Shown here one piece after another: positions 16,601 to 22,600 of a DNA stretch of 64,000 nucleotides. This stretch comes from Owenia fusiformis (Eukaryota). Numbering within the stretch: the first letter of the stretch is position 1; every line of letters starts with the position of its first letter. Made by a program: the position numbers and the translations under genes. The stretch covers positions 5,580,001 to 5,644,000 of the forward strand of contig CAIIXF020000001.1 of NCBI GenBank assembly GCA_903813345.2, given 5' to 3'. Below the pieces are notes generated by a model. That model was not told the origin of the DNA and made no database searches. It saw nothing but the letters and a program-made list of their open reading frames with translations.

Positions 16601-19600
16601 AAACATTGAATTCCGGCCAATTACTGCTGGAGAGCCCATAATTAACCACCAGATCTGTGTCTGTGTGCGCAAGCGGCCTCTCAATAAAAAAGGTAATATC
16701 TAAGAACCTTACAAGTGAACAGTGTGTGAGTCTATACTTGTTCAACAGTATTTATAATTGTTCAACGAACGGAGTTCGGTAGGGATATAGTGAAGCCGTC
16801 CGTCCATCCGTCCACAAGATAACTCGAATACTAGTTGACAGATTTTTGGTGAATAGTTTTACGCAAAAAAAGATTTTTCAAGATGGCCGCTGCTTTAAAA
16901 CTGACAGGAATTGTTGCAAAAGTCTTATGCTTTTCATTTTTAACCTAAGTAATAAATATTATTATTTGAAAACAGAAATTTGCGTTAATTTTGAGATGTT
17001 TTTTTTAAAGTATATCTTCATTATACTCAAGAGGCAATTTAGAGTAGATGAAGGGAAGAGTAGATGATAAATATAACATTGTGACTGTACAGATTCATGA
17101 TTTATATAGTGTTATACTATATCACCCTTGGTATATGCAGCACCGATAATGACTGGGCAGGTACAGCGTGACTGGTGCTGTACAACAGTTATTTTTGAAT
17201 TTAAATTAAATATGATCAGCTTAATGTCTAACTTCTTGTCAAACTTCAAATCTATGTTATCTTGGGATGTTTGGAAGCTCCCCAAATTTCTATAGATTTT
17301 TTAGACAAAGTAAAACTTATAAATATGCACGAAGGCATTTTATTTCATTTTTTACTTCAGCTAAAAATTAAAAAAGGGAATCTTCCAAATATTCCAAGAT
17401 TTCACAGAATTCAAATTTGACAAATTAGTATATGAAGCTAGTTATGGGTTATTTGAATTCAAAAATTAATGTTGTGCCATGCCAGTCATGAGGAACACAT
17501 TTGGTCCATACTCAGTAACTATGTATACCAAGCATGTGTATGTTGTCTAGAGCATTATTCATTTTTGTAAATGATGTGGGGTGAGCCTTTTCTTTTTCCC
17601 TTAATTTTGTTTTCTCAAAAGTGTTGAATTCTCTATGAAAAAGGTTGACAAGCTTAAGAGGATATTATAGACATTTCAATGAAAATTCAGACTATTCTGT
17701 ATTGCAGAAGTGAATAAAAAAGACCATGATGTGATCACAGTTCCAAACTCTGAGAGTGTTCTAGTCCATGAGCCAAAAACAAAAGTGGACCTGACAAAGT
17801 ATTTAGAAAATCAAAATTTTAGATTTGATTATGCTTTTGATGAGAACTGCAGCAACGAATTAGTTTACAAGTGGGTAGCATTAATAAAATTTTTAATATT
17901 TTATTATTATTAAGTAAAACTAAGTAGAACATTATTTTTTAAATTTTATTTCATTTAATAACAAAATGTGAGGGCACTTAGATAACATAAATAAACAAAA
18001 ATCAACCTGCATAGCCAAACCAATGTATTGATCATTTTTCAGATTCACTGCTAAGCCTTTAGTGGATTGTATATTTGAAAAAGGGATGGCTACTTGCTTT
18101 GCTTATGGACAGACTGGAAGTGGAAAAACACATGTAAGCTTTTGGGTTTTCAGTATATAGTAGTATTTAGGGTAGCACAATATTATTGAGCATCAGAAAA
18201 TTCAAAATGGATGGCACTTTTTGTCAAAATCTTTTCATTTTTGCTTGAGGTTAAATACTAGGGTGGAATGGGCTTCCTTGGGTTGGGTCGGGAAGACAGA
18301 GCCAGAAACCTCTGGGCCAAAAAGATTTGGATGATTTATGATGAAGAAATCAGTGAAAAAGAGAATTTTTATTGAACTTTCCAACCAGAACCCTGGACAT
18401 CTTGTTTGGTAACAGCTTAATCGAGTGCAGTATCATTGAATATACATACTCATGTTTTTTTGCTTCAAGACTATGGGAGGAGACTTTACAGCTAAAGGCC
18501 AACAAGACTGTAACAAAGGTATCTATGCCCTGGCAGCCAGAGATGTATTTAGGCTACTTGCCTCAAAATACAAGAAACAGGACCTTACAGTCGGCTCAAG
18601 TTTCTTTGAAATATATAGTGGAAAAGTAAGTTGAATCTGACCTTTAAATTCATATTTTACCTGTAATTTTGACATATTATCATAACCACCATTTATGAAC
18701 TGGCATTTGGCATCTGCATTGCAAATTGATTTAACCTTCTCTATAGGTATTTGATCTGCTGAACAAAAAGTCCAAGCTACGTGTTCTGGAAGATGGGAAA
18801 CAACAAGTACAAGTGTGTGGCCTTAAAGAGGAAGAAGTACACAATGTTGATGATGTACTCAAGCTGATTCACCATGGCAACCAGTGCAGGACATCGGGCA
18901 CAACATCAGCAAATGCTCACTCATCCAGATCACACGCAGTGTTTCAAATCATTCTTAGATCAAAGTAGGTCACTCATACTCAATCTCTGTATATTTTTCA
19001 TAAACATATTTTATTTCAGAGAAAAGTGTCTAAAATTACACCTGTTTTGATATGCCAAGATTGAGGTTGGGTTCCTTCATGTCATTTTATGTTTCAGAAA
19101 AACTCGGAAGCTTTGGGGTAAATTCTCATTGATAGATCTTGCTGGTAATGAGAGGGGGGCAGACACATCTAGTGCAGACAGACAGACTCGTATGGAAGGT
19201 GCAGAGATCAACAAGAGTTTGCTTGCCTTGAAGGTAAGTGTATGTCTATCTACATAATTAAAGATCTGCTCTATTTGAAAACATCTTTGTTTTTATTTCA
19301 TTTTTTTTATGAATGCCAACTAAGCATCAAGGTATAAAAGTGTTTGTAATTCTGTTATGACAGCTCTATGCTATGGCCATGTTTTTTCTGAGAATAGATC
19401 ATATATTGACACAATCTTGAAGCCTAAATAAGAGTCATTGATGTCCTCTAGATGTACGTGTAAATTGTTTACTATATTGTAGGAATCTTTGAGTGCTCTA
19501 GGACATAAAGGGACTCATTTGCCATTTAGGGCCAGTACATGTACGTGTAAATTGTTTACTATATTGTAGGAATCTTTGAGTGCCCTAGGACATAAAGGGG

Positions 19601-22600
19601 CTCATCTGCCATTCAGGCCAGTTCATGTACGTGTAAATTGCTTACTATATTGTAGGAATGTATCAGGGCTCTAGGACGTAAAGGGGCTCATTTGCCATTT
19701 AGAGCCAGTAAACTTACTCAAGTTCTCCGTGACTCATTTATTGGAGGAAACTCAAGAACATGTATGGTAAGCACTTAATAAGTTATTATTTGTGTATCTC
19801 ATTACATCTAGCAATGCTTGATAGTTTTCATTCAACCCATAGCAGTTAAACATTTTTGTTAATATGATTGGATAGATTAAATTTTTTTTAACATATTATT
19901 TATTTCCTTCATAATCAAAAAAATACACAAACTATATACTACCAATCGCCATAGGCATTCTAGGTAGTTTAGATAGATTTAGTCTAATGATTCCAGCAGC
20001 ATTATGGATATAATATAAGAATATGCTGCAATAGGTTCTCTAGAAATCTTTATCCCACCAAACGTAGTTCAAAATGGATGTAGAGAAGCTGTCCATTTGT
20101 TAGTTTGTTCGTTCGTTCATCTGTCTAGACAATATGTTCAAAATGGCCACCATTTTTCATAAAAAATGTAATATCAGTCGATGGTTCAAATTTTATATGT
20201 TGAATGCCTGGGGACACAGCAGCTCTGCTCAAGAGGAAATTTTCAAGATGGCAGCTGAATTTCAAAATGGCTACCATTTTTTGTAAAAAACATAATCTTT
20301 GATAATTATATAGGCAAATGCCTAGAGATAAAGGAGCTATGCTCAAGAAGAAATTTTCAAGATGGCCACTATTTATCAAAACATGGTTTTTTTGTTTGGT
20401 GGGATTCGCTTCTCCGTGGAGTTTCCCATTATTATACAGTAGCTCAGCCAGCCTGTTAAAGTTAAATCTGAAAAAGAAGTTAAATAACAACATACATAAT
20501 GCAATGCAAATTTCTGAGTCAATTCTTCCATCAATTTTTACACTTTCTGTCTGTTGTAGATATCAACTATCTCACCAGGAATGTCGTGCTGTGAACACAC
20601 TCTCAATACATTGCGCTATGCTGACCGTGTAAAGGAACTAGGACCAGGAGGCCCAGTAGAGGGCAAACCAGCAGAGATCCATCACAACCCACCATCAAAT
20701 GCTGTTATGTCCCCACAGAACTCAGATCTGGTCCTGCTTCAAACTACTAATGTAAGAATTTTATTAATATTTGTGCAGTATACATGTATTTTAAAACTGA
20801 AAGACTGAAGAATAATCCCCAGTAGCCTTCAATGATAATGTAAAATAAGTGATTTAAGTTTTCTAATTTAGATACTTTTGTTATTAACTTTGATGCTTTT
20901 GAAAGGATTATACATCTAATTGATGTGTTGTTTTTTTTATCATTATTTAGAGGAAAATGTTTGATGATTTGTAGGAGGAAGAGATGGCAGATGACTTGCT
21001 GAACTTCCATGAAGTGATTAACCACATGCAAGAATTGGAGGAAGAACTCATAGATGAACACAAGAATGTCACTGAAGTAAGCAAGCATTTTCTAAGCCCA
21101 TCATCATATAATTCATGTTTGACAAAAACATTAATGAATTAATTATTTGTGTGCTGCTAGATTCTGTAAAAATCTCTATTATTATACAGATTTCAGCTTA
21201 GTACTACATCAGATTGAACTTGTATAACAATACATTTGTTTAACATTTCAGCAAATGGGCAAATTTGTGATAGAGAATAAGAAATTATTAAAGATGACAG
21301 ATGAAGTGGATTATGATGCTGAAGGTAAAGTGAATATTTAGTAGTTAGTTGCGAATCAAAAGATCTTACATCTATTTAAATGTATATAAGAACAGGGTGT
21401 TAACTTTATTATTTCAATATGTATATCATTTAAAAACCTAATAAATTTTGAATAGCAATTTTAATTACTGTAGATTGGGTTAATTTGGCGCCCGCTTTAA
21501 TTTGGCGAATTTGGCGAAATTGAAAAATTCGCCAATATAAATCTTCGCCAAAATTTAGAATGAATCCCCGGGAATTATCTAGGGTAATTCGTCCAGTATA
21601 TTTAGGTCACTTCCGGTTTATTTTTTTCCAAAAATATGAAAAAATGTCTCTCATAAATTGGCTCAGAACTGGTCAGTCACTCATTAATACTCAGGGAAAA
21701 ACTAGGAAAGGAAAAGCTTGGTATAGTAGCAGCATCGATCGAGGTGCAAAATGTAAAGGATGATCTCACAAAGATGTACAAACGTGGTGAATATCGCCAA
21801 TGGTCCTCATAAGAAAAAATGAACATAGCCAAAGATGCCCATTTACGTGGTAATTAGCAAACAGCGCGTAAGTTTGAAATTTTTTTTTTTCATATCCGCC
21901 AGATTAAATAGCCGCCAATATGCCAAAAATGGCAAAATCGCCAAATTAAGTAGCGCCAAATTAACCCAATCTACAGTATATGAAAGTCCATTTAACAAGG
22001 TGAAACGTTAACCTGCAACCTTTTGATTCTGTGCTGCCTGGCTCAATTGTGTATTTTTTGCAGCTTATGCCAGAAACCTGGAGAACCTCCTGACCAAGAA
22101 GATAGATACTTTTACGAGGCTAAGAGGTATGATATTGTATATTCAGTACTTGAATTAGTACGTGAATTAAGATTCCACATTTTCCTTCAAATGTCTTAAA
22201 ATGTTTCAGAATTAGGGGAAAGGGGTTTACAATGTGAAGTCAGCTAAAGTTGAACTTTTGACACAAAAAATGCCACCCACCCACATTATGTTGAAAACTT
22301 GTTATTTAGTACAGTAAAACTAGACTCCATGGTGCAACTCCACAGGAAGTTTCAGAAGACTAGCTCAACTAGATGCATATATATGAGTGTTAATATGTGT
22401 TGTCTATTCCTTTGCAAGCACATCCGGATTTTACACAAAAAATGATGCCCACCTTTTGAAACATAGTTTTGCAAATAACTTCTCATGATTTTTCTATTAA
22501 TGATAACTATATCATTTTGTGTTTAATTGAATGGACTTCCTTTCCCTGTGAGTCCAAGCAAAAATCATTGGTATTTCTAAAGTAGTGGTGTGCCTGCAAA

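Follow-up and report, generated by a model that had tools for sequence, protein, structure and literature searches.

A triplicated intron 12/exon 13 boundary in a KIF2A-like kinesin-13 gene of Owenia fusiformis, very probably a silent mirage minisatellite

Described duplications of splice boundaries

The "mirage" minisatellite of amphioxus Adh3 was reportedly first described by Canestro et al. 2002, and somatic instability is said to occur in it. Amphioxus mirages are covered for Adh3, troponin C, the globins BflGb6/BflGb9, and PGBD5 in two reports, according to which they leave splicing undisturbed (PMC3087553, PMC3902484). The unit described there in BflGb6 comprises an intron's 3' end together with the 5' portion of an exon, as does the unit analyzed here in Owenia fusiformis. 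Further likenesses to the Owenia array are the few imperfect copies (81-100% identity, two haplotypes having 3 and 6 units), the retention of splice signals and the failure to detect aberrant mRNA. Unit size is 87 bp in Owenia versus 10-72 bp in Adh3, 150-160 bp in the globins, and 60 and 108 bp in PGBD5. The host is an annelid here rather than amphioxus, and in Owenia there are no more than hints of length polymorphism or somatic instability. A literature search, with subscription journals mostly outside its reach, returned no report of mirages in annelids.

In humans, CBS c.844_845ins68 is a duplication of an intron/exon junction in which the distal copy is strongly favored; the upstream exon piece, which bears a damaging change, is spliced out to yield normal mRNA (PMC2630376). 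That polymorphism consists of two copies of 68 bp and has been studied experimentally, whereas the Owenia array has three copies that diverged longer ago. In tandem mutually exclusive exons, such as those of Dscam and myosin heavy chain, each copy is a complete exon bounded by two splice sites and conserved in frame. The Owenia array shares with them tandem copies located too close for co-inclusion, but its decoys are half-exons with no visible constraint and no RNA depth. The array is a further example of the repeat class known from lancelets and paralleled in humans.

The host gene and the array

The window, a stretch of 64,000 nucleotides, contains a KIF2A-like kinesin-13 gene of 18 coding exons at 4616-25184 on the forward strand, on which all features below lie, as established by spliced alignment and by Pfam Kinesin matches on exons 12-14. 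In the spliced alignment, the window exons reproduce the annotated 689-aa protein P0002 letter for letter, with GT..AG introns. P0002 is a kinesin-13 (KIF2) with a central motor domain and both the KVD and KEC(IR) motifs, the roles of which are addressed in PMC5099117 and PMC6299235; its closest relatives carry the name KIF2A. Exon 12 (19098-19233) ends in SLLALK at a strong donor, AAG/GTAAGT, with a score of 12.1. Exon 13 (19656-19766; 111 nt, ECIRAL...RTCM) has a Pfam match and the donor ATG/GTAAGC, which scores 9.0; its number in the preliminary description of this DNA agrees with the annotated protein, in which it is 13 of 18. Exon 14 (20560-20751) encodes the end of the motor domain and is supported by a Pfam match and the spliced alignment. 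A high-copy repeat is located in intron 13, at about 20120-20420.

Tandem Repeats Finder (TRF) detected an array at 19452-19710 with a period of 87, 3.0 copies, 89% matches, and a score of 427. Each unit consists of 31 nt from the end of intron 12 followed by about 56 nt from the start of exon 13, so that a head-to-tail tandem repeat spans the exon-intron boundary. Unit 1 (19452-19538, 87 bp) has a decoy acceptor AG at 19481-19482 and a degenerate exon start of 56 nt. Unit 2 (19539-19624), which is shortened to 86 bp by a 1-nt deletion, has a decoy acceptor AG at 19568-19569, also followed by a degenerate exon start. Unit 3 (19625-19711, 87 bp) carries the authentic acceptor AG at 19654-19655 together with 56 nt from the start of exon 13. 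Over the final 14 intron bases the three units do not differ, and their 31-nt intron parts are one base apart: position 19641 is C in copy 3 and T in copies 1 and 2. Four changes common to the decoys are situated in exon bases 5-12, just past the acceptor. Neither a further genomic copy nor a haplotig was observed for the unit, the array matching one place in the genome.

Both TRF and the sequence bear out the earlier account of three tandem 87/86-bp units with near-identical acceptors (87/86/87 bp), and every one of its translations is correct. Copy 3 encodes ECIRAL and completes K|EC across the 19233/19656 junction, while copies 1 and 2 encode ESLSAL. Read-through from acceptor 1 meets the TAG at 19567-19569, and that from acceptor 2 shifts the frame to a TAG at 19672-19674, again as claimed. 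The copy 2 cassette at 19570-19626 is indeed an in-frame segment of 57 nt, with 29 nt between it and the true acceptor. For the copy 1 cassette ending at 19540 the geometry exists, but with a length of 58 nt the segment 19483-19540 shifts the frame. The GTACGT donor-like site is present as well; it is, however, ancestral intron sequence, found also at 19454, which the duplication did not create but merely placed behind an exon-like stretch. The special tie to the KEC motif proved incidental, since the motif happens to coincide with the beginning of an exon, and arrays elsewhere strike other exon starts and ends.

The triplication is real, as short-read contigs from two DNA runs (X1 and X2) support the array. 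One X1 contig (19467-19568) matches the assembly exactly from copy 1 into the copy-2-type acceptor, a second (19554-19747) runs from copy 2 into copy 3 with 71 and 123 letters on either side and 2 differences, and others span the unique intron into copy 1. In X2, a different sample, one contig lies on copy 2 and carries a variant of its own at 19591. That the tripled unit is an assembly artefact, absent from the genome, is thus hardly credible, given these crossings, the private X2 variant, and units that are separated by substitutions and not by indels alone. In its favor, X1 departs from the assembly at 19618 and 19631, the two differences inside the array, while its other listed unique contigs are exact; in the contig that connects copies 1 and 2, the unit junction is flanked on one side by just 30 letters, where the rule is 31; and X1 may be the assembly's own sample. 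At 19631 the change is G>C in the sole X1 contig there, so that the copy 2 donor-like site reads GTACCT. The X1 copy 1/2 contig has a depth of 27 versus 40-64 for its other unique contigs, and the summed X2 depth over the array is 426/186/588 versus about 77-112 in quiet unique bins, contig depth not being equivalent to copy number in either case.

Splicing of the array and competing explanations

Splice sites were scored with a small matrix built from the 16-17 sites of the host gene itself, so the values are rough. A potential acceptor is retained in 3/3 units, scoring 11.7 in decoys 1 and 2 and 10.6 in the authentic copy. Intrinsic acceptor strength as the cause of distal choice was rejected, the decoy scores not being below that of the authentic site; the one-base difference at 19641 may affect a branch point. 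Behind copy 1, the weak donor-like site CAT/GTACGT (19541-19546) scores 4.7 and would yield the 58-nt frameshifting cassette; behind copy 2, the corresponding site (19627-19632) also scores 4.7, or 1.3 with the X1 base, and would yield the 57-nt in-frame cassette. That level is reached by 69/1014 intronic GT sites of the host gene and falls inside the range of its true donors, 3.4-12.1. For NMD, a stop must precede the following junction by more than 50-55 nt. The stops predicted for acceptors 1 and 2 precede the exon 13/14 junction by 197 and 92 nt, beyond that limit, and the 58-nt cassette joined to exon 13 over a 115-nt intron would also encounter an early stop (19 codons).

RNA was analyzed in two raw runs taken by species label, in which 6% of reads were sampled and depth was read in 71-base bins; both represent steady-state RNA of low depth with NMD active, from samples whose genotype at the array may differ from the assembly. 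Exon 12 has depths of 26.9 and 10.4 in bin 19126-19196, exon 13 has 28.3 and 27.2 in bin 19694-19764, and exon 14 has 22-28. Bin 19623-19693, in which exon 13 occupies 38/71 bases, has 15.8 and 11.6. In contrast, decoy RNA was sought in the five bins that cover 19268-19622, and the depth was 0 in each of them in both runs, including on copy 1 (bin 19481-19551) and copy 2 (bin 19552-19622). Decoy use therefore has a rough upper bound of ~6% (0 of about 51). On binned depth, splicing appears normal, with aberrant mRNA undetected in 2/2 runs, and the annotated P0002 uses copy 3.

The decoys copy only the first half of exon 13, 56-57 of its 111 nt. Their changes comprise 6 replacement, 4 silent, and 1 frameshift, compared with 75% replacement sites, the counts being small. 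Among 120 homologues, the anchor motif was present in 117 and exon 13 in 110; the residues C, I, and R, which are invariant in 110/110 of the latter, are lost in the decoys. From sequence, and with small substitution counts, the decoys appear to evolve as neutral DNA would, with no sign of constraint.

Taken as a whole, the array is very probably a silent "mirage" minisatellite, the spare copies of which are spliced away with the intron. A short stretch straddling the boundary between intron 12 and exon 13 would have been duplicated in tandem, presumably by slippage or unequal crossing-over. The spare copy would then have gained several substitutions before being duplicated again, because copies 1 and 2 have in common 5 replacement changes and the 19641 change against copy 3. 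Intron 12 would thereby have lengthened from 249 to 422 nt, exon 12 being joined to the last acceptor while the spare copies leave with the intron. A likely cause of this distal choice is exon definition: the last acceptor alone is 111 nt from a strong donor and precedes an intact exon, whereas a decoy would be paired with a weak donor or would open an exon of 197 or 284 nt. If splicing did slip to a decoy, the stop encountered, 92 or 197 nt ahead of the following junction, should consign the transcript to NMD. The array would thus persist since it is nearly silent, not for any function. It should be noted that between competing human 3' sites the upstream one is preferred overall, the tendency being greatest for exons with a short (<250 nt) upstream intron (PMC9225289); with acceptor 1 at 249 nt from the donor, use of the distal site does not follow clearly from exon definition by itself.

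The earlier interpretation stands as regards "decoy", equally strong acceptors being skipped in the RNA sampled; its poison, motor-dead, and incipient mutually exclusive readings find no support, given RNA depth 0, half-exons, no sign of constraint, three broken invariant residues, and a common architecture, although decoys may be used at a low level with the products degraded by NMD. If acceptor 1 or 2 or the 58-nt cassette were used in some cells, KIF2 mRNA would be sent to NMD, and copy number would tune the kinesin-13 dose. Such regulated poison splicing is quite improbable, even though both decoys retain an intact acceptor that scores no worse than the authentic one, every such product has an early stop, NMD would mask the products in steady-state RNA, and DNA contig depths hint at copy-number variation. 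Depth was 0 in two RNA runs, the decoys show no sign of constraint, and the presence of comparable arrays at a quarter of the kinesin loci suggests a mutational habit rather than a gene-specific switch.

Replacement of exon 13 by the in-frame 57-nt copy 2, giving a motor without KEC, would escape that masking: the product would evade NMD, yet copy 2 has depth 0 in the two runs, so that only one of the two alternatives is observed in mRNA. The frame and the 29-nt spacing, which makes co-inclusion impossible, agree with a mutually exclusive exon. Genuine duplicated exons, however, bear both splice sites of a whole exon with a conserved frame, while copy 2 is a half-exon whose donor is weak, and GTACCT in X1. 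Moreover, 18 residues would be removed, including a conserved 11-residue core identical in 110 homologues, and as the lost residues belong to the microtubule-binding face, a broken fold would be expected and not an alternative motor. This outcome is accordingly extremely unlikely. An intron gain in progress, in which an upstream decoy is turned into a genuine part of an exon while the remaining array forms a new intron, deserves equally little credence. A model of this kind for mirage arrays is drawn in the Figure 7 legend of PMC3087553, and the geometry permits a splice from copy 1 to copy 3 over 115 nt; it calls, however, for an intact decoy as well as a new acceptor within exon 13, C, I, and R are missing from the decoys, and RNA provides no support.

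Similar arrays in other kinesin genes

Boundary-spanning arrays were observed in 13/208 motor-exon HMM segments, at 10/38 other kinesin loci. They have 2 to 33 copies, and the authentic copy adjoins the remainder of its exon; 9 are on the acceptor side and 4 on the donor side, too few to call a bias. As the same type of array occurs in about a quarter of kinesin loci, the KIF2A-like array is ordinary. Selection silencing the decoys through changes past the acceptor is not needed as an explanation, since other arrays are 97-99% identical. Enrichment at exon boundaries was tested over all 88 arrays, with 13 observed and 8.8 expected (P 0.08). For the 58 arrays with a period of 30 or more, 13 were observed and 8.1 expected (P 0.04), and for the 52 with a period of 30-200, a filter picked post hoc, 5.3 were expected (P 0.001). 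No enrichment is claimed, the model being crude and the HMM ends inexact.

A further-reaching proposal combines decoys that leak at a low rate into NMD, an unstable copy number that acts as a heritable or somatic gene-dose dial, here for kinesin-13, and an array that is one of probably thousands, possibly beyond random placement. We regard this combination as unlikely; "probably thousands" is extrapolated from one family, in which about 6% of kinesin motor-exon segments are involved.

The single locus is of little weight, and its value is that of a single instance of a genome-wide pattern. Arrays of this kind can mislead annotation through false exons and inflated domain counts; one kinesin exon has 19 Pfam matches. 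They also represent many natural tests of last-acceptor choice among identical acceptors. If such arrays are truly abundant, a non-chordate genome would be rich in duplicated splice-site substrates, allowing a direct test of choice by an invertebrate spliceosome.

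Array structure and presence in DNA reads

The tandem array, located at 19452-19710 by Tandem Repeats Finder (TRF; period 87, 3.0 copies, 89% matches), occurs once in the genome according to a genome search. Its units are 87, 86 and 87 bp in length, each consisting of 31 nt of intron with a terminal AG (19482, 19569, 19655) and the first 55-56 nt of the exon behind it. The host is a KIF2A-like kinesin-13 gene (4616-25184) whose 18 exons match P0002, an annotated protein of the annelid Owenia fusiformis, exactly. In P0002, exon 12 (19098-19233) is joined to exon 13 (19656-19766), which begins at the copy 3 acceptor, and K|EC is therefore completed by copy 3. 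This join bears out the preliminary description, which had attributed completion of the KEC motif to copy 3, and its translations of the copies were all correct on re-checking. The requirement for both KVD and KEC in depolymerase activity, which it took as established, is backed by PMC5099117 and PMC6299235. Downstream of the gene, a 22-bp minisatellite (59.2 copies, 92% matches) was observed at 26922-28223.

Contigs of two DNA runs support the triplication as real DNA, and an assembly artefact is unlikely. In X1, which may be the assembly's own sample, one contig matches 19327-19481 exactly. Another matches 19467-19568 exactly at a depth of 27 and passes from copy 1 into a copy-2-type acceptor, reaching 30 letters past the unit junction against a threshold of 31. 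The third (19554-19747, depth 47.6, with two differences, 19618 C>T and 19631 G>C) bridges copies 2 and 3, extending 71 letters to one side of their junction and 123 to the other. X2, a different sample from the same study, provided a copy-2 contig that bears a variant of its own (19591 C>G). Summed X2 depth across the array was 426, 186 and 588, compared with approximately 77-112 in quiet unique bins; this high depth, together with the halved depth of X1, is a hint that copy number may vary, contig depth being no measure of copy number.

Decay and RNA depth of the decoy copies

Relative to copy 3, copies 1 and 2 have five replacement changes in common (C>S, I>L by two bases, R>S, R>H), implying one duplication, a period of decay and a second duplication of the decoy. 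Copy 1 alone carries one further replacement and one silent change, and copy 2 alone has three silent changes and has lost 1 nt. The totals of 6 replacement changes, 4 silent changes and 1 frameshift, where replacement sites constitute 75%, show no visible constraint on the putative decoy coding sequence, the counts being small. The C, I and R residues are invariant in the 110 homologues having exon 13; the anchor motif was found in 117 of 120 KIF2A-like homologues, and of these 117, 5 skip exon 13 and 2 differ otherwise. In the protein records of those 5, SLLALK runs straight into the next exon and the 37-residue exon is skipped in frame, which may reflect either a true isoform or an error of annotation.

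On a rough matrix built from the host gene's own sites, the acceptors of copies 1-3 score 11.7, 11.7 and 10.6. The donor-like sites behind the two decoys both reach 4.7, a value equalled or exceeded by 69 of 1014 intronic GT sites; with the X1 base, the copy-2 site drops to 1.3. True donors of the gene score 3.4-12.1, that of exon 13 scoring 9.0. If acceptor 1 or acceptor 2 were used, a stop would lie 197 or 92 nt, respectively, before the exon 13/14 junction.

Two raw RNA runs, representing allele mixtures in which NMD was not blocked, were sampled at approximately 6% each. Depth was 0 in both runs in all five bins of 19268-19622, which take in copy 1 and the exon-like part of copy 2 minus 4 bases. 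Bin 19623-19693 gave depths of 15.8 and 11.6 (29.5 and 21.7 when scaled to its 38 exon bases) and the following bin 28.3 and 27.2. A rough 95% upper bound on decoy use is thus near 6% (0 of ~51, mates possibly overlapping), based on binned depth rather than junction counts, since joints were swamped by the high-copy repeat of intron 13. This repeat (20120-20420) contains internal direct repeats, reaches contig depths of hundreds of thousands and attracts RNA reads by the hundred that originate at other loci. At position 19700 both alleles are present in RNA, C accounting for 18 of 26 and 8 of 20 reads; in X1 the assembly T allele shares a contig with copy 2, and X2 has the C allele, so the expressed haplotypes probably carry the decoys.

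The zero depth confirms the earlier reading of copies 1 and 2 as decoys. The further suggestions of a poison exon, a motor-dead isoform or incipient exons are unsupported, given this depth with NMD active and the lack of visible constraint. The array also fails both checks applied to mutually exclusive exon pairs. Since the in-frame copy-2 isoform would be no NMD target, the bound of about 6% holds fully for it. Elsewhere in the gene, approximately 59 nt of intron 3 (12086-12144) are flanked by a long pyrimidine tract with AG on one side and a TAG/GTACTT site on the other. They may form a frameshifting cassette exon, and as a candidate poison exon they are preferable to the array. Also in intron 3, 84 nt after an AG (11052-11135) hold an open acidic frame (DVAAAAEG...EDLEQ) with a GT close behind, possibly an alternative exon absent from P0002, its ends being approximate. 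In the last intron, an open frame behind an AG (23550-23645) may be an alternative last exon.

Boundary-spanning arrays at other kinesin loci

A genome-wide Pfam Kinesin search gave 144 matches, grouped into 39 loci and 49 stretches (314,341 bases), in which TRF found 89 arrays with a period of at least 20. Inspection by eye covered 42 of these: each of the 23 that lie no more than 30 nt from an HMM-defined exon segment, plus 19 of the rest, picked by hand. A splice site is spanned by 14 of the 23, including the kinesin-13 array. With that array set aside, 13 remain for 208 exon segments, spread over 10 of 38 loci. Nine are acceptor-side and four donor-side, with periods of 33-159 and 2 to 33 copies, the copy numbers being lower bounds for three that touch the edge of a fetched stretch. 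In one of the 13, the donor is present in the authentic copy only. The count leaves out five further arrays whose splice site, although clear, lies outside the HMM segments, and a 97-bp array beyond the fetched stretch. Random placement predicts 5 to 9 boundary arrays, and enrichment at boundaries is therefore not established by the 13 observed. The kinesin-13 array is a small example of a routine feature of the O. fusiformis genome.

The longest array (159 bp x 17.9, 97% identical) precedes the motor-end exon of another kinesin (L032:4345-7188; G000:C2:23266345-23269188, minus strand). Its unit contains the acceptor and 127 nt of that exon, the authentic copy is last, and the array produces 19 distinct Pfam hits at profile positions 290-327. 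Three boundary-spanning arrays occur at one kinesin locus (L062; G000:C6:40703300-40711300, minus strand), with units of 154 bp (acceptor), 76 bp (acceptor) and 110/55 bp (donor, 17 donor motifs), and an additional 39-bp array begins right behind a donor. At L048:66-1113 (G000:C10:37150888-37151935, minus strand), a 33-bp unit repeated 33.3 times includes an acceptor and approximately 20 nt of a P-loop exon, giving 30 acceptor motifs. Three exons grouped as one kinesin locus (L066, L067 and L068; G000:C8:26499903-26543296) bear arrays of 110 bp (acceptor), 67 bp (donor) and 84 bp (acceptor).

Known systems and choice of the distal acceptor

In amphioxus, tandem repeats with a unit spanning exon and intron are named mirages, and BflGb6 has 6 units in one haplotype and 3 in another with splicing undisturbed, according to PMC3087553 and PMC3902484. 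The layout described there, an intron 3' end plus an exon 5' part, is the same as in the kinesin-13 array. Three of five mirage features were found in this array: a unit across the boundary, potential splice sites retained in the spare units, and normal splicing as judged by RNA depth. The other two are length polymorphism, at which the DNA depths hint, and somatic instability. In human CBS 844ins68, as described in PMC2630376, an intron/exon junction is duplicated and use of the distal site yields normal mRNA.

Exon definition is most likely the reason for the distal choice: it would pick the last acceptor, which is nearest a strong donor and has an intact exon behind it. Human data in PMC9225289 back cross-exon proximity under exon definition; in the same data, the upstream of competing 3' sites is preferred overall, most where the upstream intron is <250 nt. 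Acceptor 1 lies 249 nt from the exon 12 donor, so the human rule does not plainly predict the distal outcome. Survivorship applies as well, as selection would remove arrays that captured splicing in an essential gene. The question of distal choice bears on the mirage class more than on the kinesin-13 locus.
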